Assembly (NCBI GenBank): GCA_965279035.1 | Contig: OZ257142.1 | Span: forward strand, 640,001-704,000 | DNA: 64,000 bases | Source of the DNA: Bacteroidia bacterium | GTDB lineage: Bacteria > Bacteroidota > Bacteroidia > M30B66 | Direction of reading: 5' to 3' | Shown here: one piece after another, positions 8,835-20,633 of the stretch | How positions within the stretch are numbered: position 1 is the stretch's first letter | How the letters are laid out: each line of letters starts with the position of its first letter | The notes under the pieces: model-generated | The model's database searches: none | Told to the model about the DNA's origin: nothing | What the model saw: the letters and a program-made list of their open reading frames with translations, nothing else | Program-made: the position numbers and the translations under genes

Positions 8835-10040
8835 TTATTCCGATTCAAGTTCATTAATAGTCAGCCAAGCCATCAATCCCATTCCAGTAATCAAGGCTTC
8901 TTCATTGATATCGAATGTGGATGTATGAACTCCTGATGTAAAGGCACCATTGTCGCCTGCTGTTCCCAATCGATAAAAACATGCAGGATATTCTTGGGCA
9001 ATCCAGGCAAAGTCTTCGGCGGTCATTCGTTTTTGCAATAATTCCACATTCTCTTTTCCAAGAAAGTCTTCTGCTGCTAGTTGACAACGATTAGTTAAAG
9101 CTTCATTATTGTCAAGAACCGGATATCCTTTTCGAATTTCTACCTCGGCTTTTACTCCAAATGCATGAGCTGTTTCGATGCATATTCGGTGGATGTGTTC
9201 ATGAGCTCGCATTCGCCAATGTTCGTCCATTGTTCTGAATGTTCCTTCCATTTTTACTTCATCTGGAATCACATTGGTAGCACCATCGGCAATGACTTTT
9301 CCAATGGATAAAACAGTTGAAACTCCTGGTGCAGCTAGTCTGCTTGCAATTTGTTGAAGGGCGATGATTAAATGTGCCGCAGCTAAAATGGGATCATTTA
9401 CTTGATGCGGCATAGCACCATGTCCACCTTTGCCTCGAACTGTAATGTATATTTCATCAGTAGAAGCCATGTATTTACCTGCACGAAAACCTACTTTTCC
9501 CGCAGGCAATGAAGGAAATACATGTTGAGCCAAAACGGATGCTGGTTTTTTATCATCAAAAATGCCTTCTTCCATCATCAATCGCGCACCTCCTGGTAGT
9601 TTTTCTTCTCCGGGCTGAAACACTAGAAGGACTTCACCTTTCCATTCACTTCTTAGTTTTTGAAGGATGATTCCGGCACCTAGGACACAGGCCGAATGAA
9701 CATCATGTCCACAAGCATGCATCACACCTTTATTCACCGAGCAATAATCACTTGAATTTATTTCTTGAATTGGTAACGCATCCATATCGCCTCGCAAGGC
9801 AATGGTTTTTCCGTTTCCATTTCCTTCTATCAGGGCGCGAATACCCGTACCAACCCAACCAGATGTAAACGGAATCGCATATTCGTTGAGTTTGGTTTGA
9901 AGAAAGGCACTGGTCTCATTTTCTTCGAATGATAATTCAGGATGTTGATGAATATGCCTACGTATATCACGAATCAATGGAAACAAACTCTTGGCTTCTT
10001 CCTGAATGCACTGTTTTAATTGTTCTTTGGAGATGCTCAT
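8835..10040 (-). CDS. M20 family amidohydrolase (Acy1-like)
   Basis: RRHIHQHPELSFEE, RGDMDALP, MHACGHD, FQPGEE, GKGGHGA and AEDF motifs. Start set to ATG 10040. Confidence 0.92.
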   Translation of the reverse strand: MSISKEQLKQCIQEEAKSLFPLIRDIRRHIHQHPELSFEENETSAFLQTKLNEYAIPFTSGWVGTGIRALIEGNGNGKTIALRGDMDALPIQEINSSDYCSVNKGVMHACGHDVHSACVLGAGIILQKLRSEWKGEVLLVFQPGEEKLPGGARLMMEEGIFDDKKPASVLAQHVFPSLPAGKVGFRAGKYMASTDEIYITVRGKGGHGAMPHQVNDPILAAAHLIIALQQIASRLAAPGVSTVLSIGKVIADGATNVIPDEVKMEGTFRTMDEHWRMRAHEHIHRICIETAHAFGVKAEVEIRKGYPVLDNNEALTNRCQLAAEDFLGKENVELLQKRMTAEDFAWIAQEYPACFYRLGTAGDNGAFTSGVHTSTFDINEEALITGMGLMAWLTINELESE

Positions 10041-10405
10041 TTGGTAAAAATCATTTTCAAAGCGATTAATAAAATGAACACTCCAAATATTTTTCTCAGC
10101 ATGGATTCTTCTATGTTTACGGCTATTTTGGAGCCTAGCCAAGCACCAATTACGAAGGTTGCTCCTATAATCAAACTGTATTTAAAATTGAGGCTTCCTT
10201 CTTTGTAGTAATTGATGGCTGCCATAAATCCAACTGGCATAAGTAACATTCCAATCGAAACACCTTGCGCTTGTTGTTGTGTCATACTTAAAAAATAAAC
10301 GAGTGCTGGAACAATGATAATTCCACCACCAATTCCAACCATTCCACTCGCAATGCCTGCAATTATTCCAATAATGAGTAAGGTAATGATGATCGTCAAA
10401 TCCAT
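10037..10405 (-). CDS. Sulfite exporter TauE/SafE (TSUP) family, half-size
   Basis: SGMVGIGGGIIIVP and AQGVS motifs with ~4 TM helices; one repeat only. Confidence 0.85.
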   Translation of the reverse strand: MDLTIIITLLIIGIIAGIASGMVGIGGGIIIVPALVYFLSMTQQQAQGVSIGMLLMPVGFMAAINYYKEGSLNFKYSLIIGATFVIGAWLGSKIAVNIEESMLRKIFGVFILLIALKMIFTK

Positions 10406-14320: not shown

Positions 14321-15232
14321 ATGAAACCAAAAGGAAAAAGTACGGCCTATCTTGAACTTCATACCGCTGTATTTCTTTTTGGATTTACAGGAATTCTCGG
14401 TCGTTTAATTTCGCTCGATGCCGGATTGCTTGTGTGGCATCGCCTCTGGATGACGGCTGTTTTGATGTTTATTTACGTAAAATATATTGGGAAATTTAGG
14501 TTGCTACATTGGAAAGAAATACTACGCATTGCAGCGATTTCTCTAGCCATTGTATTTCACTGGATCCTTTTTTATGGTGCAATAAAATTAGCTAGTGTTT
14601 CGGTGGCGATGATTTGTTTGTCATCAATCACTTTGTTTACTGCTTTGCTAGAACCAATACTGTTTAAAAAATCATTCTCCCCAGTTCAAATTATCTTTTC
14701 TGTTTTAGTCATTGTGGGAGTTTCCTTTATGGCGCAAGATCAACAAGAGCACGTTGTAGGAATCATGGTTGGCTTGGCTTCCGCATTTTTTAGTGCCTTG
14801 TTTACCGTTCTAAATAAATCCATTATAAGTCGTTACGATTCACGTTTGCTTTCCTTGTATGAAATGGCTTTGGGATTTGTTTTATTAACGTTTTTAATGC
14901 CATTAGTCGATATGTGGCTTCCCTTAGGAAACTGGATGCCGGTTCCTAGCGATTGGGGATATTTAATTCTGTTGAGTTTCTTCTGTACTGTTGTTGCCTT
15001 TAATCTGTCCTTAAGTTCGTTGAGGTCGATTAGTGCTTTTACGGTAAATTTAGCGATCAATCTCGAGCCGGTATATGGAATTGCCTTGGCCTTCTTGGTT
15101 TTCCAAGAACATAAATTATTAGGTGCAGGATTTTATATTGGAGCAGTAATTATTTTAGCAACTGTGCTCGGAGAAGTTCTTTGGAAACGTAACAGAGAAA
15201 AGAAATTCGCAACTACCAAGGTGAAAATTTAA
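14321..15232 (+). CDS. DMT/EamA family transporter
   Basis: About 10 TM helices in two EamA repeats, NLEPVYGI motif; TAAATTTG -7 element at 14300-14307. Confidence 0.9.
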   Translation: MKPKGKSTAYLELHTAVFLFGFTGILGRLISLDAGLLVWHRLWMTAVLMFIYVKYIGKFRLLHWKEILRIAAISLAIVFHWILFYGAIKLASVSVAMICLSSITLFTALLEPILFKKSFSPVQIIFSVLVIVGVSFMAQDQQEHVVGIMVGLASAFFSALFTVLNKSIISRYDSRLLSLYEMALGFVLLTFLMPLVDMWLPLGNWMPVPSDWGYLILLSFFCTVVAFNLSLSSLRSISAFTVNLAINLEPVYGIALAFLVFQEHKLLGAGFYIGAVIILATVLGEVLWKRNREKKFATTKVKI

Positions 15233-16367
15233 TTCCGAAAAAGATCCCATTAAGTGTATAATCGAAACCTTCCAACGTTTCAATTCTTTTTTCGTGAGTT
15301 GCCGAAATATAAGCGTTAAGCTTTCTATTGGGAAACCAGTTAAGTGATGCCCCTATGCGCGATTGGGTGATGTCATACGAATTGTTGATCAAGAAACCAT
15401 TGTTTTCGATGATGTTTCGTGTATTCCCAGAATAATAATCCAAGCCCAACCAGAATTTGTTGGATATTCTAATTTGGATAGAAGGCTTATGTACCCAATT
15501 GATTGAACTGTTTTGCTGTTGTGAAATCACCTGGTATTTAAAGATTACAGTGCTATTTCCCTCGGGATACCATGTTATTCCTGCCGTTTCTTGAATTTGA
15601 TTATCGTAATTCATATTACCAGCATCCACATTCAAATCAACATCCCAATTGCTAATCGATTTTCGAATTCCAAATCCTCCAACTTGATGTTGCAAAAAAT
15701 GTTGGCTTTTATCATTATAGTTCACCACAATATCGAGGTAGGAGAAATTACCTCGAATAGAAAAACCCGTTCGATTTTGCCAGTTTACATATCCCGAATA
15801 CACCTGTTGTTTGACTAGCGAATAATAATTCGATTGACCAATATTGGAATAGGCAGCATGAATAAAAAGAGATGGATGTGGCGACAAATTAACTCCAAAG
15901 GAGCTATATTTTAAATTACCAATTGCGTCACTATTACTGTTTTTAGAACCTATATCAGCTGTTATGGAATTTAAAGATTCTGTTTTATAACGAGCTTGTT
16001 TTGTTGCTCCTAAGTTCAACAATTGTTTGCCAACAAGGACTGCTTCCTGAGTTCTCCCACATTCTCTCAAAGCAGCTTCTAAATACAAAAGAGAAAAAGT
16101 ATCTGCCGAATTTAAACGTGTAGCTCGCCGAAATTCATCTATTGCAATTCGGTATTTCTTCAATCGAAAGGCTGCTTCTCCAAGTCGATATCTTAAAAAG
16201 TAATATTCTTGACCACTTACCTTAATTAAATCTTTTCGATGATTATACAGCGAATCCCATTGTCCACCAAGATACCATGTGTATGAAGTTAATTCAGGAT
16301 CAGCCTCGATTGTCTGCGCAGAAACCCTTCCAACCAAGAGAATAATAAATAGAAATAAAACACGCAT
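15213..16367 (-). CDS. Hypothetical outer-membrane beta-barrel protein with an N-terminal TPR-like region
   Basis: Signal peptide (MRVLFLFIILLVGRVSA); TPR-like YRLGEAAFRLKKYRIAIDEFRRA; alternating beta-strands ending GIFFGIKFSPW. Confidence 0.65.
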   Translation of the reverse strand: MRVLFLFIILLVGRVSAQTIEADPELTSYTWYLGGQWDSLYNHRKDLIKVSGQEYYFLRYRLGEAAFRLKKYRIAIDEFRRATRLNSADTFSLLYLEAALRECGRTQEAVLVGKQLLNLGATKQARYKTESLNSITADIGSKNSNSDAIGNLKYSSFGVNLSPHPSLFIHAAYSNIGQSNYYSLVKQQVYSGYVNWQNRTGFSIRGNFSYLDIVVNYNDKSQHFLQHQVGGFGIRKSISNWDVDLNVDAGNMNYDNQIQETAGITWYPEGNSTVIFKYQVISQQQNSSINWVHKPSIQIRISNKFWLGLDYYSGNTRNIIENNGFLINNSYDITQSRIGASLNWFPNRKLNAYISATHEKRIETLEGFDYTLNGIFFGIKFSPW

Positions 16368-16429
16368 CGGCGACAAAGATGGTTCAATCACCGAAGAGTT
16401 TAAAATGAAAAAATATTTAATAATTGAAT

Positions 16430-16485
16430 TTATCCAACACTTCCTTCCAAACGAACGGAATTAGTTTTTGTGCTTCCTCAGCAAA
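16430..16485 (-). repeat. Degenerate direct-repeat copy of the sufB 3' end (attR-like remnant)
   Basis: TTATCCAACACTTCCTTCCAAACGAACGGAATTAGTTTTTGTGCTTCCTCAGCAAA aligns to 17823-17879 at 51/57 positions (manual count). The first 23 nt are identical and there is one 1-nt deletion. Confidence 0.9.
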
Positions 16486-16550
16486 CCAGAATGTAGAGAT
16501 TTTGGTTGACAAATATGTTTCTATGTAAGCATATTGGATTACAATAGTGA

Positions 16551-16580
16551 ACAAATGTAAATAATATCATTTACATTTGT
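16551..16580. promoter_or_regulatory. Perfect palindromic operator containing two divergent -7 elements
   Basis: ACAAATGTAAAT-AATATC-ATTTACATTTGT (12-6-12); each arm contains TACATTTG (TAnnTTTG). Confidence 0.7.
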
Positions 16581-16593
16581 GTGTTAAAAATTC

Positions 16594-17064
16594 ATGTGCC
16601 TTATGAGGACAACGAAAAAATTACTTGTTGAACAGCTAGATAGAAAATTGAAACCCTTTTTTGGAACAGAGAAAGTTATTGTTCCAGATCAAGGATGGAT
16701 AAACAACATTAGAAAAACTCTAAATATGACATTAGAGCAATTGGGCAGTAAGCTAAATGTAACTCGACAAGGAGCAAAAAAAATTGAAATGAGTGAAGCG
16801 CAAGGAACAATTTCATTGAAATCAATGAAAGAAATTGGAGGAGTTCTAAATATGCAATTCGTATATGGCTTCGTACCAAAAGATGGTTCGATAGAAAATT
16901 TGATAAACCACAAAGCCGAAGAACTTGCTAGAAAAATTGTTTTGCGAACAAATCAAAATATGAAACTAGAAAACCAAGGAAATACTGAGGAGCAAATAAT
17001 AAGGGCAATTAACGATTTGACAAATGAAATAAAAAGAGAATTGAATAAATCTTTATGGGATTAG
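16594..17064 (+). CDS. Mobile mystery protein A (XRE-type HTH; putative antitoxin/regulator)
   Basis: P..GWINNIRKTLNMTLEQLG, E..G.ISLKS, FVYGFVP and MKLENQ; ends in LWD; overlaps the Fic gene. The start may instead be ATG 16603. Confidence 0.9.
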   Translation: MCLMRTTKKLLVEQLDRKLKPFFGTEKVIVPDQGWINNIRKTLNMTLEQLGSKLNVTRQGAKKIEMSEAQGTISLKSMKEIGGVLNMQFVYGFVPKDGSIENLINHKAEELARKIVLRTNQNMKLENQGNTEEQIIRAINDLTNEIKRELNKSLWD

Positions 17065-17651
17065 AACTCGAATATGAAGACGGGCAAACACCGTTAAGTG
17101 AAGAAGAAAAAGAAGGATTACGATTAAAAACAATTACTACACATGGCGAATTAGATGAGCATGAACAGTTAAATATTGAGAAAGCGATTGAATGGACAAT
17201 AAAAACAAAATTCAAAACGGAAAAAATATTAACCGAAGATTTTATAAAACTACTTCATAAAAAAATGCTCGGAAATGTTTGGACCTGGGCAGGAGAATTT
17301 CGAAAATCAGAAAAGAACATTGGAGTTAAATGGGTGATGATTAGAATTGAATTGAAGGCACTACTTGAAGACACAAAGTATTGGATAGAAAATAAGACTT
17401 TTTCAGATGAAGAGATTGCAATTCGATTCAAACACCGCTTAGTAAATATTCATTGCTTCCCGAATGGTAATGGGCGACATTCAAGAATAATGGCAGATAT
17501 AATTATGGAATCAATATTCGGAAATGAACCATTTTCATGGAATCATTCCAATATGGTTAAAGCCAATCAAACTAGGAAAAACTATATAAATGCAATACGA
17601 GAAGGCGATATAGGAAACATTCAACCCTTAATCGACTTTGCGAAAAACTAA
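17055..17651 (+). CDS. Mobile mystery protein B (Fic domain protein)
   Basis: GQTPLSEEEKEGL, ELDEHEQLNI, VWTWAGEFR, and Fic motif HCFPNGNGRHSR. Confidence 0.92.
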   Translation: MGLELEYEDGQTPLSEEEKEGLRLKTITTHGELDEHEQLNIEKAIEWTIKTKFKTEKILTEDFIKLLHKKMLGNVWTWAGEFRKSEKNIGVKWVMIRIELKALLEDTKYWIENKTFSDEEIAIRFKHRLVNIHCFPNGNGRHSRIMADIIMESIFGNEPFSWNHSNMVKANQTRKNYINAIREGDIGNIQPLIDFAKN

Positions 17652-17822
17652 TAATCTGTAGATATAAGCACAGGATAGAAAAGTCAAACTTTCTGATTCA
17701 TTAATTCATCCTATTTTATCTGGACATTTATTCAATGAATCCATTCTACTCACTTTATTAAGTTCTTCAACTGTGTGAAGTTTGGAGATTAATGTAAACT
17801 GCTAAAATGACTTAGGCTTCAA

Positions 17823-19271
17823 TTATCCAACACTTCCTTCCAAACTAACGGAAAGTAGTTTTTGTGCTTCTACTGCAAATTCCATCGGTAATTGTTTCAA
17901 AACCTCTTTGCAATATCCATTTACTATTAAGCCAATGGCTTTCTCAGTATCAATTCCACGTTGTTTACAGTAAAACAATTGGTCTTCACCAATCTTAGAA
18001 GTAGTGGCTTCGTGTTCAACAATGGCGGTAGGATTTTTTATTTCAATGTATGGAAAGGTGTGCGCTCCGCATTGATCACCCATGAGCAATGAATCACATT
18101 GAGAAAAATTACGCGCATTGGCTGCTTTCAGACTGATACGAACTAATCCACGATAACTATTTTGACTTTTACCAGCAGAGATTCCTTTGGAGATGATGGT
18201 GCTTTTCGTGTTTTTGCCCAAATGAATCATCTTGGTTCCGGTGTCGGCTTGTTGCATATTGTTGGTTACTGCAACAGAGTAAAATTCACCCACCGATGAA
18301 TCTCCTTTCAAAATCACACTTGGGTATTTCCAGGTGATGGCTGAGCCTGTTTCTACTTGTGTCCAGGAAATTTTTGCACCATATCCAGCGCATATGCCTC
18401 GTTTGGTAACGAAATTAAAAATTCCTCCAAGGCCGTTTTTATCACCTGGATACCAATTCTGAACGGTGCTGTATTTTACTTCTCCTTTTTCTTGTGCAAT
18501 AATTTCTACAACGGCAGCATGAAGTTGATTTTCGTCACGCATGGGAGCTGTACAACCTTCCAAATAACTCACGTAAGCGCCTTCTTCAGCAATAATTAAC
18601 GTGCGTTCGAACTGACCTGTTCCGGATGCATTGATACGGAAATAGGTAGATAATTCCATAGGACAACGAACACCTTTAGGAATATAACAAAATGAGCCAT
18701 CAGTAAATACTGCAGAATTCAAGGCTGCATAGTAATTATCTGTATAAGGAACCACCGAGCCCATATATTTCTGGACTAATTCGGGATGATCAATTACCGC
18801 TTCACTAAAGGAGCAGAAAATTATTCCTAGCTCGCCCAGTTTTTCTTTGAATGTGGTTTTTACCGAAACCGAATCAATTACTGCATCTACTGCAACTCCT
18901 GTAAGTCGCTTTTGTTCGAGAAGTGAAATGCCCAGTTTTTCGAATGTTTTACGAAGTTCCGGATCTACTTCATCTAAGCTATTGAGTTGTTTTGTTTTCT
19001 TGGGTGCAGCATAATAGATTATGTTTTGGAAATCTATTTTCGGATAATGCACATGTGCCCAAACTGGTTCTTCCAATGTTATCCAATACCGATACGCCTT
19101 TAATCGGTAGGCCAACATCCATTCTGGTTCTTTCTTTTTTGCAGAAATAAAACGGATGATATCTTCATTCAGCCCTTTGGGCGCAGAATCCATCTCGATA
19201 TCAGTGGTAAATCCCCACTTATAATCGGAATTGATGTGCGATTCAAGAATTTCGTTGCCCTCTGCTGACAT
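17823..19271 (-). CDS. sufB: Fe-S cluster assembly protein SufB
   Basis: [40 protein letters not shown] and HEAT motifs; ends LEGSVG. Confidence 0.97.
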
Positions 19272-19290
19272 GATTTATATTTAAAAAAAA

Positions 19291-19617
19291 TTAAACGGCG
19301 AAACTTTCTCCGCATCCGCAAGTTCGTGTCGCATTTGGATTATTAAATGAAAATCCTTTCCCATTCAATCCTCCCGAATACTCGAGTACTGTTCCTACCA
19401 AATACAAGAAACTCTTCTTATCAACCAGAATTTTCACTCCCTTGTCTTCAAATAACTGATCTCCATCACGTCGTTCTGCATCAAAATCCATTTTATAAGA
19501 AAGTCCAGAACAACCTCCTCCTTCAACACCAACACGTAAATAACTATCAACTTTATGATTTCCTTCAGTCATTAAGCTCATCAATTTTTCTTTTGCAGTT
19601 TCAGATACTGATATCAT
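19291..19617 (-). CDS. iscA: A-type Fe-S carrier (HesB/IscA/SufA)
   Basis: GGGCSGLSY and NPNATRTCGCGESF motifs. Start set to ATG 19617. Confidence 0.95.
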   Translation of the reverse strand: MISVSETAKEKLMSLMTEGNHKVDSYLRVGVEGGGCSGLSYKMDFDAERRDGDQLFEDKGVKILVDKKSFLYLVGTVLEYSGGLNGKGFSFNNPNATRTCGCGESFAV

Positions 19618-19679
19618 ATTGAATCTATCTTTTCTGTTAAACAAGCAGCTTTCGGTTTAGTTTCAAAAGCAGGGTTTTT

Positions 19680-19712
19680 ATTTAGACTTATTCTAAACAG
19701 ATGGCAAATATA
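19680..19712 (-). promoter_or_regulatory. iscA-sufB promoter: -7 element (19705-19712) followed by a Fur-like box (19680-19698)
   Basis: TATATTTG on the minus strand. The palindrome ATTTAGACTTATTCTAAAC matches 17/19 of ATTTAGAATTATTCTAAAT and sits just after the predicted TSS. Confidence 0.65.
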
Positions 19713-19859
19713 CGCATTGACGGGGAGTTAATCAACATCAAGATTTGTTTGTTTTGATAAAATTCAATCAGAAATTTTTCGTTTAGAAATTTTTCATGGT
19801 AACAATTAGAAAGAAAATCCAAAATTCAAAAACTATATTTGTCGAAATAGTCAGGAGAT

Positions 19860-20633
19860 ATGAGTAGTACTGAGGAAACAGAAAAGAAGATTACCCATCA
19901 TTTAGAAGAGTGGTTAAGTGTTACCCAAAATACAGAAATCAATAAAAATATTCAGGGGTTTATTGAATCTGCAAAATCGGCTTTAAATATTCTCGCTAAT
20001 ACACGAGTAGCAGCATTTATTTACGATTATGAGCGTGGAAATTATGCGTATTTCAACAGCTATTTTCCCGAATTAATGAATACCACTTCAGAGAGAATTG
20101 AGGAAATTGGAATCCGAATAATGCAGGAGAGTGTTCATCCGGAAGATTTTATAAAATGCTTAAGTATAACTCGTCGCTCGCTTGCTGTATTTGATTTAAT
20201 GAAAGACGATGAGAAAGAAAGTACTCAGCTACGTTTATTTTTTCGCATTAAAAGAGCAAGTGGCGAATATTTCTGGGTGATGCAAAGTAATCGTCAAGTG
20301 AGATGGAGTAAATATGCACCAACGCTCGACTTAGCATATATCGTAGAGCTTTTCAATGATCATCACCCTATGAAAGTGATGGCTGTTTTGCAAACGAACA
20401 GTCGAAACATGAATATTTTTCCTGATGATGATACTGTTTTGTTAAGTAAGCTCACTATGCGCGAAATGGAAGTACTTCGGCTTGCATCCATGGGGCTTTC
20501 AACAAAAAATATTGCAGATAAATTGGTGGTTTCGGAAAATACAATTAAAACTCACCGACATAATCTAATCAAAAAACTCAAGGTTCGAAATATTGTTCAA
20601 GCTTCGAGTATGCTTGAAAAAATAGTAAATTAA
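19860..20633 (+). CDS. PAS-sensor LuxR-family transcriptional regulator
   Basis: PAS-like VHPED...FRIKRASGEYFWV; C-terminal LTMREMEVL...IADKL.VSENTIKTHRHNL; TATATTTG -7 element at 19834-19841. Confidence 0.9.
   Translation: MSSTEETEKKITHHLEEWLSVTQNTEINKNIQGFIESAKSALNILANTRVAAFIYDYERGNYAYFNSYFPELMNTTSERIEEIGIRIMQESVHPEDFIKCLSITRRSLAVFDLMKDDEKESTQLRLFFRIKRASGEYFWVMQSNRQVRWSKYAPTLDLAYIVELFNDHHPMKVMAVLQTNSRNMNIFPDDDTVLLSKLTMREMEVLRLASMGLSTKNIADKLVVSENTIKTHRHNLIKKLKVRNIVQASSMLEKIVN

Follow-up and report, generated by a model that had tools for sequence, protein, structure and literature searches.

Why should the 3′-end of sufB, an iron-sulfur (Fe-S) gene, be present twice in one contig, with a single two-gene cassette between the copies? 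The question is raised by a 64,000-nucleotide (nt) stretch of DNA from a Bacteroidia bacterium (GenBank assembly GCA_965279035.1, contig OZ257142.1, positions 640,001 to 704,000 of the forward strand; GC content 38.8%, no N), hereafter called the window at its full length, in which the intact sufB is followed by the genes of mobile mystery protein A (mmA, with a helix-turn-helix (HTH) domain) and mobile mystery protein B (mmB, with a Fic domain) and then by an orphan copy of its own end. The mobile mystery A/B pair is named for its patchy distribution, and its vehicle is not known. An earlier note on this DNA had read the arrangement as an attL/attR scar of site-specific integration, with sufB as the attachment site. 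Taken alone, the window yields a modest finding: an old insertion scar, now decaying, lies behind an intact sufB, and the most fitting reading of the repeat is that it came about when an HTH-Fic unit was inserted, with the sufB reading frame preserved. The same kind of bracket recurs around related cassettes at other sites, and the account that we tentatively favour, with somewhat less than even confidence, is that the unit 16486-17822 is a foreign, self-contained Fic toxin-antitoxin cassette that entered through recombination anchored in sufB and not by means of an integrase of its own.

The repeat itself was reproduced as it had first been described (the 57-bp end of sufB again at 16430-16485, matching at 51 of 57 positions, with 23 nt including the stop codon identical and a 1-nt deletion): a repeat search and a global alignment of 16430-16485 with 17823-17879 both gave 51 matching columns, five substitutions and a single 1-nt gap (Table 1). 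The identical 23-nt block (16430-16452 and 17823-17845) holds the reverse complement of the sufB TAA stop. When translated, the proximal copy yields the end of SufB, whereas the distal copy yields FAEEAQKL and VRLEGSVG-stop in two different frames. Allowing up to three mismatches, the 23-mer occurs at only two places in the 64 kb, a number of matches reached by 0 of 100 shuffles, and local alignment of flank against flank scored 39.5, compared to at most 13 in 30 shuffles (z = 32); because the shuffles never approach the observed match, a chance origin of the repeat is excluded. No third copy of the sufB end was found in the 64-kb window. Among 80 SufB relatives the C-terminus is almost invariant, and the orphan copy changes V to E (GTA to GAG) and S to R at positions conserved in all these sequences; with invariant residues changed and the frame broken by the 1-nt deletion, it is therefore a decaying, non-functional end. 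The corresponding 57 nt of unrelated species match the last 57 nt of the window's sufB at 37-48 positions, compared to 51 for the orphan copy.

That the duplicate might be an artefact of assembly, which the earlier note had named as grounds for dismissing its reading, is unlikely: each of three runs (X2, X3 and X5) from one sample, possibly the source of the window itself, has a single Logan contig over 14500-19800 without any difference, at word depths of 116-630. A joint skipping 16430-17823, as an excised or empty form would produce, was not found in the contigs of four runs (X1, X2, X3 and X5), although assembled contigs lose rare excised forms. A piece of one X1 contig starts at 16399 and is preceded by unlike sequence; by our own arithmetic from bin depths it covers ~70 nt at roughly 31x, and it was not used as evidence.

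Between the copies, gene calls agree with the earlier observation that only the A/B genes are enclosed, on the strand opposite to sufB. mmA lies directly upstream of mmB on the same strand, the two genes overlap by 10 nt, and both are convergent with sufB. The limits of the cassette could be defined independently of the repeat by nucleotide homology to related cassettes (L-numbers denote the loci compared, G-numbers genomes), which runs over 16556-17654 to the cassette of L081/82 (86.8% identity) and over 16491-17654 to that of L083 (81.8%), and which begins at 16556 for L087 as well. Because homology to L083 begins at 16491, the left repeat, ending at 16485, abuts the cassette edge. On the right, the spacer 17655-17822 contains no open reading frame (ORF), has no Rfam match and has no counterpart at the other cassette loci. 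The cassette genes have a GC content of 32-33%, compared to a mean of 38.9% for the ORFs of the window (sd 2.8, n = 47). In an unrelated sludge metagenome run, a 1108-nt contig covers 16556-17623 with 45 differences (~96% identity); over its first 40 nt it does not resemble the window, and no close cover of sufB or of the left flank was found in that run, so that the core cassette is present at ~96% identity in another context. Judged by GC content and by this contig, the cassette looks foreign to the chromosome in which it now resides.

To place the window among its relatives, mmB was used to scan metagenomes, yielding 80 loci with 63-86% amino acid (aa) identity, in all of which mmA precedes mmB where the contig permits. 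For each locus, 700 nt on either side of the cassette were aligned to each other, the score was compared with shuffles and a repeat was called at z > 10; 18 of the 80 loci, with mmA cut or flanks too short, were left out and 62 were tested. Flanking direct repeats of 44-227 nt, 75-93% identical, were present in 16 of the 62, which amount to 11 distinct sites (same-site pairs being L081/82, L091/92, L116/117, L135/136 and L143/144). Of 48 control intervals, matched in size and taken from other parts of these loci, none had such a repeat. The DNA that forms the bracket is local and different at each site, ranging from the ends of genes to promoters and intergenic stretches (Table 1). The edges of the cassettes are tight: the left repeat ends 95-160 nt before mmA at most sites, and the right repeat starts 0-33 nt past the mmB stop at six. 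Suf operons host or adjoin three independent insertions (the window, L081/82 and L149/154), a clustering above chance by a rough estimate of our own arithmetic. Among 401 sampled Bacteroidota genomes, the mobile mystery family was found in 41, with a single match in each, and flanking repeats were present at 2 of 29 reference-genome loci, L180 (287 nt, z = 118) and L177 (52 nt, z = 9.5). The 227-nt repeat of L081 was considered as the end of a group II intron, which was not confirmed; Rfam over 11 repeat-bearing loci returned only the tRNA of L135.

Table 1 Features of the window and of the loci compared with it. Positions are those of the window unless a locus is named.
Feature	Location	Strand	Basis or remark
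Orphan (distal) copy of the sufB 3′-end, 56 nt including stop codon	16430..16485	-	Repeat search, global alignment
Left control region of the cassette, 108 nt	16486..16593	+	Palindrome, promoter-like TTGACA
Mobile mystery protein A (mmA), XRE-type HTH plus C-terminal helix	16594..17064	+	TIGR02612, 133.9 bits (cut-off 122.6)
Mobile mystery protein B (mmB), Fic-domain protein	17055..17651	+	TIGR02613, 244.1 bits (cut-off 124.4)
Spacer, 168 nt, from the cassette's conserved right edge to the sufB stop	17655..17822	.	Common to no other cassette locus
Proximal copy, final 57 nt of intact sufB	17823..17879	-	Repeat search, global alignment
sufB, intact, 482 aa	17823..19271	-	NF008773, 904.8 bits
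A-type Fe-S carrier gene, SufA/IscA/ErpA family, co-directional with sufB and upstream of it	19291..19644	-	
392-aa protein without family match	15213..16391	-	Signal-peptide-like start (by eye)
Repeat, final 25 nt of tRNA-Leu plus terminator	L135		Rfam: tRNA; possible third copy in L136
Repeat, sufD-like 3′-end, convergent as in the window	L154:1285-2586		
Same site as L154	L149:958-1710		77% nt identity; flanking copy at this site (L149/L154) partial
Repeat, GNAT gene 3′-end	L098		
Repeats, intergenic DNA plus first codons of the next gene	L116, L091		
Repeat, gene 5′-end with promoter	L110		
Repeat, 227 nt, upstream of an Rrf2-sufA-fdx-sufB operon	L081:4537-8897 (same site in L082)		
Cargo plus bracket at the Crp-family site of G444	L220:2472-6072		Copy 306-323 nt
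Cargo plus bracket at the Crp-family site of G450	L221:2459-6060		Copy 306-323 nt
PF05635 gene behind sufB	L009:9594-9971		
PF05635 gene behind sufB	L012:6295-6732		
PF05635 gene behind sufB	L014:7289-7684		
PF05635 gene behind sufB	L018:9486-9908		
PF05635 gene behind sufB	L024:8818-9222		

A direct view of the state before insertion was obtained at one of these sites. In a three-way alignment, genome G247 carries the empty site for L180 of genome G279, with a single 287-nt copy, both outer flanks contiguous and sharp edges; from this comparison, the structure of L180 is a true target duplication around an insert. The two L180 copies differ at 14 positions, of which 13 lie in the coding part and one in the 107 non-coding nt. 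In G279, an element of ~110 nt (L180:2110-2227) separates mmB from the right repeat; it has many copies in several related genomes (G247, G406, G410 and others), often at contig ends, and looks like a small interspersed repeat. An empty site for L178 was sought in the relatives of G052 and gave no usable match.

The bracket is also not confined to A/B cargo. Five species can be arranged in a series by what they carry at one site, the 3′-end of a gene for a Crp-family regulator: the site is empty in G446 and is occupied by the A/B cassette without a repeat in G360, G448 and G449, while in G450 the regulator gene is followed by a 3.3-kb cargo and then by a 323-nt copy of the regulator 3′-end at 94% identity, and in G444 by cargo and copy as in G450 and then by the A/B cassette. 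According to Pfam, the cargo encodes an AraC-family regulator, two proteins of unknown family and a short-chain dehydrogenase, with no integrase. The distal copy retains the native TAG stop and the native downstream DNA (as in G446 and G449), whereas the proximal end has TAA and enters the cargo. Counts of divergent alleles in the proximal versus the distal copy are 18 sites versus 6 in G444 and 7 versus 12 in G450. Identity between G444 and G449 is 98-100% upstream and 87-91% in the Crp-family gene, and that between G449 and G446 is 62-85% upstream and 96-100% in the gene. Since identity along the locus is mosaic in this way, homologous exchange between species has evidently been active at the Crp-family anchor gene.

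Traces of a dedicated recombinase are rare around these cassettes. Domain searches bore out the earlier description of the cassette as integrase-free: none of the 52 window ORFs carries an integrase, recombinase or transposase domain, and no integrase is present among the window ORFs of at least 120 aa. Terminal inverted repeats were found above z = 2 in 0 of 14 repeat-flanked units, which share no junction motif either. Pfam was run on 191 of 297 neighbour ORFs from 63 loci (the other 106 being mostly same-site duplicates or more distant ORFs), and integrase or transposase domains were seen near the cassette at four of the 63 (L112, with fragments; L124, rve; L140, IS200-type; and L160), or at five for recombinase or phage domains when the Mu-type portal of L158 is included. 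In L160, a more distant cassette (64% mmB identity), an intact tyrosine integrase (L160:2239-3552, Phage_int_SAM_5 plus Phage_integrase, 437 aa) lies ~110 nt upstream of mmA and just behind accB-accC. In L158 (1692-3799), also distant, a Mu-type portal gene (Portal_Mu, 202 bits) comes next after the cassette, which suggests that some family members reside at the edge of a Mu-like prophage. No convincing direct repeats were found around the integrase plus cassette of L160 (a 7-kb contig), around L158 or around L147. The remaining neighbours are ordinary genes, such as those for S-adenosylhomocysteine (AdoHcy) hydrolase, ribonucleotide reductase, GyrB, topoisomerase, LpxD and transketolase. Plasmids offer a vehicle for distant members only, since family members in 253 plasmid records, mostly from Rhizobiales, Coxiella and Vibrio, all fall below 60% identity. 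No mmB relative was found in 50,697 phage records.

Is sufB, then, a recurrent docking site? A genome scan with SufB returned 80 loci with 72-84% best-segment identity; these are distant and hence form a weak test for the window's own lineage, whose closest sampled genome by RpoN is at 66% identity (among the 401 Bacteroidota genomes). When each locus was searched for a repeat of the final 90 nt of its own sufB, 0 of the 80 had one (a single 15-nt chance match arose), and neither the A/B genes nor the window's other neighbours occur near sufB in any of them. Conversely, no sufB-like remnant lies beside the other A/B cassettes (L081-L225), apart from the real sufB of L081/L082. The att-site reading of sufB is thus partly upheld: two copies of the gene end do bracket a discrete, integrase-less HTH-Fic unit, but the data do not support sufB as a recurrent or dedicated attachment site, and it appears as one landing place among many.

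The repeat coincides with a break in the suf operon. The window contains sufA and sufB, but no sufC, sufD or sufS and no remnants of them were found in its 64 kb. A SufD-like gene lies 1.1-1.6 kb downstream of sufB in 44 of the 80 relatives, and among the 14 closest relatives inspected, 11 have a sufC-sized ORF after sufB, directly or past one small gene; of the remaining three, L015 has other genes after sufB, and the contigs of L010 and L018 end soon after it. Because most relatives have sufB-sufC-sufD and the window has none of the downstream genes, its suf operon is split exactly at the repeat. The first gene past the orphan end, 38 nt on and on the sufB strand, encodes the 392-aa protein listed in Table 1. 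As a separate observation, five of the 14 closest relatives inspected carry a small gene for a '23S rRNA-intervening sequence protein' (PF05635, 121-132 bits) between sufB and sufC, with no duplicate of the sufB end; the spot just past the sufB stop thus recurrently takes an extra gene.

Under the favoured account of homology-anchored import, the donor DNA would have held the 3′ part of a sufB gene followed by ~168 nt and the cassette. One donor end would have recombined homologously within the recipient's sufB, and an illegitimate joint would have attached the other at a point 57 nt short of the stop codon of that gene; a circular form of this DNA, entering by a single crossover, is the alternative. 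The functional sufB would now end in the imported copy, with the recipient's own displaced last 57 nt left at 16430-16485 and since decayed. The pair would then persist because mmA would neutralise and repress the Fic protein mmB, so that a cell which lost the cassette by repeat-to-repeat recombination would pay a penalty. We infer here the identity of the enzyme (host homologous recombination), which of the two copies is native and the addiction effect. This route is favoured because targets are varied and repeat lengths are continuous from 44 to 323 nt, because integrases, inverted repeats and junction motifs are mostly missing, and because an ordinary 3.3-kb cargo has the same bracket together with a foreign proximal allele (G444). 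It is also favoured because experiments in E. coli give a precedent: 56 of 60 recombinants had a duplicated homologous anchor, of 109-950 bp in the 14 sequenced, explained by single crossover of a circle (PMC3240628).

The likeness is to homology-facilitated illegitimate recombination (HFIR) and Campbell-type single crossover as studied in S. pneumoniae, A. baylyi, P. stutzeri and E. coli, where part of the anchor is duplicated on both sides of the insert and no recombinase of the element is needed. Those cases, unlike the present one, are laboratory experiments with engineered anchors; here the route would be natural, with anchors down to 44-57 nt at ~90% identity. Several observations weigh against such a route. 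An anchor of 57 nt at ~90% identity is short for RecA-type recombination and is of att-like size for a gene 3′-end. Several repeats, that of the window included, show an identical block bordered on one side only by a diverged one, as an att core plus arm would; in the window, 0 changes in 23 nt given 6 in 57 has a chance of ~0.04 by our own arithmetic. At one related site the target is a tRNA 3′-end of the classical kind, possibly with a third copy (L135/L136), and individual members adjoin an intact tyrosine integrase (L160) or a Mu-type portal gene (L158). Microhomology at the illegitimate joint could not be established in the window, and the bracket is not constant in the family, since no flanking repeat accompanies 46 of the 62 metagenome loci or 27 of the 29 reference loci.

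Several of these points are shared with the original proposal of a site-specific integration scar, in which an attP would mimic the sufB 3′-end, a tyrosine or serine integrase would have acted, and the unit would be either a decayed island (a relic of the kind termed cis-mobilizable elements, CIMEs) or a minimal satellite served by an integrase in trans; we regard it as the main rival, possible though on the unlikely side. The geometry is classic, with the gene 3′-end restored, the displaced end left as a direct repeat and the stop codon inside the identical 23-nt block, and since the homology route and att integration predict an identical end structure, that structure fits both. The tRNA-Leu site and the integrase of L160 also speak for an att scar, as does the described class of CIMEs, which kept attL/attR after loss of integration and transfer genes (PMC5704250). 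CIMEs differ, however, in sharing att sites with a known family of integrative and conjugative or integrative and mobilizable elements (ICE/IME) at the same gene, where for sufB none was found among the 80 relatives, and the A/B cassette family uses many unrelated targets. To explain 11 or more different targets, promoters and gene 5′-ends among them, with repeat lengths that form a continuum from 44 to 287 nt, many integrases or many independent, equally complete decays would be required, and the tight, similar cassette edges across sites are not what random decay produces. Nor is an integrase found among the 52 window ORFs, a second sufB end or cassette in any of the 80 SufB relatives, or an integrase or transposase domain near more than 4 of the 63 scanned loci.

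A quite improbable alternative, in our judgement, is duplicative illegitimate insertion without homology, by a staggered break, template switching or a transposase in trans, in which case the 57 nt would be a target-site duplication identical at birth. All six differences between the window copies can be read as decay of the orphan (invariant residues hit, a frameshift), the comparison of G279 with G247 shows a clean 287-nt target duplication with sharp edges, and repeat lengths vary widely. Long, variable direct repeats are made by the insertion sequence IS1634 of Mycoplasma. Yet there are terminal inverted repeats in 0 of 14 units and no conserved end motif, most loci have no nearby transposase, and the allele data point elsewhere: the proximal gene end of G444 is the divergent allele (18 versus 6), which fits imported homologous DNA, and the concentration of 13 of 14 L180 differences in coding sequence runs contrary to neutral decay of an identical duplicate. 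Very improbable, finally, is a scar of chromosomal rearrangement that split the suf operon at the sufB end independently of the arrival of the cassette. The synteny break does coincide with the repeat (no sufC, sufD or sufS in the window, a SufD-like gene behind sufB in 44 of 80 relatives), but the left repeat lies within ~5 nt of an independently defined cassette edge, the same bracket surrounds related cassettes at unrelated sites, the co-directional gene 38 nt past the orphan copy is as expected for a native sufB downstream region, and L015 shows that sufB occurs without a following sufC in other Bacteroidota.

Both window proteins of the A/B pair exceed the curated NCBIfam cut-offs (TIGR02612 and TIGR02613), so the pair fits its family fully, while the family label is silent on the mode of movement. 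mmB matches the Fic domain PF02661 (E = 2.1e-10) and carries the motif HCFPNGNGRHSR, in which N stands where D or E is usual; the positions H, F, GNG, H, S and R are invariant across 13 sequences. Against solved structures, mmB gave weak matches, to FICD (the best, E = 1.5e-5) and to NmFic. It also matches the PADLOC candidate defence family PDC-S04 (PDLC04839, E = 3.8e-22, 77 bits, residues 24-195), for which PADLOC sets no cut-off. mmA, of 156 aa, matches HTH_3 at 21.9 bits, slightly below the Pfam cut-off of 23, as a weak XRE-type HTH, and ends in a C-terminal stretch, KIVLRTNQNMKLENQG, with a helix at ~114-130 and an invariant E126 in the context (N/T)MKLE(N/D). No relative of mmA was found among solved structures.

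Prediction of the mmA-mmB complex from 13-row alignments gave an interface score (ipSAE) of 0.72, compared to 0.01 for the best control; a mark of 0.72 is attained by 116 of 157 solved complexes and by 2 of 215 mismatched pairs. The runs share at least 91% of contacts, with a predicted local distance difference test (pLDDT) value of 88 for the partner. In the predicted interface, mmA 114-130, including E126, would sit on mmB 138-145, the Fic loop. Class I Fic toxins have the motif HxFx(D/E)GNGRxxR, and the inhibitory helix of their antitoxins, (S/T)xxxE(G/N), binds the active site. The pair is like class I Fic modules of the VbhT/VbhA and FicT/FicA type in being a small two-gene operon whose partner helix, as modelled, places a conserved glutamate on the Fic active-site loop. 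It is unlike them in that the partner is a 156-aa fusion with an XRE-type HTH, encoded upstream, and in its motifs, (N/T)MKLE(N/D) as against (S/T)xxxE(G/N) in the helix and N as against D/E in the Fic motif. The model thus supports a toxin-antitoxin nature for the A/B pair, with mmA as the predicted antitoxin and autorepressor and mmB, from its domain matches, as a predicted toxin or defence effector; the cassette is possibly anti-phage.

Upstream of mmA, the repeat search identified a palindrome of 15+15 nt at 16551-16580, 93% complementary, the likely operator for the HTH protein. By eye, most cassettes carry two to four copies of palindromes of the form GTAAA(C)-N6-8-(G)TTTAC before mmA (L087, L091, L110, L116, L143 and L154). 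The limit of homology at 16556, common to two other cassettes and the sludge contig, falls within the 16551-16580 palindrome. A promoter-like TTGACA at 16506 is not above chance, a scan of 16300-17950 for terminators and promoters returned nothing that exceeds chance, and nothing in 15000-20000 matched Rfam at E up to 0.1. Elsewhere in the window, a 128-aa ORF at 10037-10423 matches a TauE/SafE sulfite-exporter model at positions 1-109 of 237 only and overlaps the start of an M20 peptidase ORF (8835-10142); it may be a truncated gene or one with a mis-called start.

The components of this locus are of known kinds, namely a Fic toxin-antitoxin pair, gene-end duplications at insertion sites and single-crossover duplications. 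A full-text literature search by family name only, with records judged by title and the start of the abstract, returned no study of A/B mobility and no description of A/B cassettes as recurrent minimal units within long target-derived repeats with an empty site. The combination observed here, of many A/B cassettes within long duplications of local DNA, a true empty site and missing integrase or transposon signatures, gives a concrete handle on how this pair moves. On a broader proposal, which we hold to be doubtful, A/B cassettes would be integrase-free mobile elements: a 1.2-kb Fic toxin-antitoxin unit would carry a short piece of a neighbouring, often conserved gene of its previous host as a portable homology arm and enter by host homologous recombination, with a long duplication of target DNA as the result, and its toxin-antitoxin activity would penalise pop-out. 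If an integrase acting in trans were found instead, sufB would be added to the known gene-end attachment sites. If the homology-arm idea is true, the three suf-operon insertions would be explained by highly conserved genes serving as anchors, and selfish or defence cassettes would have a general, recombinase-free means of spreading beside conserved genes.

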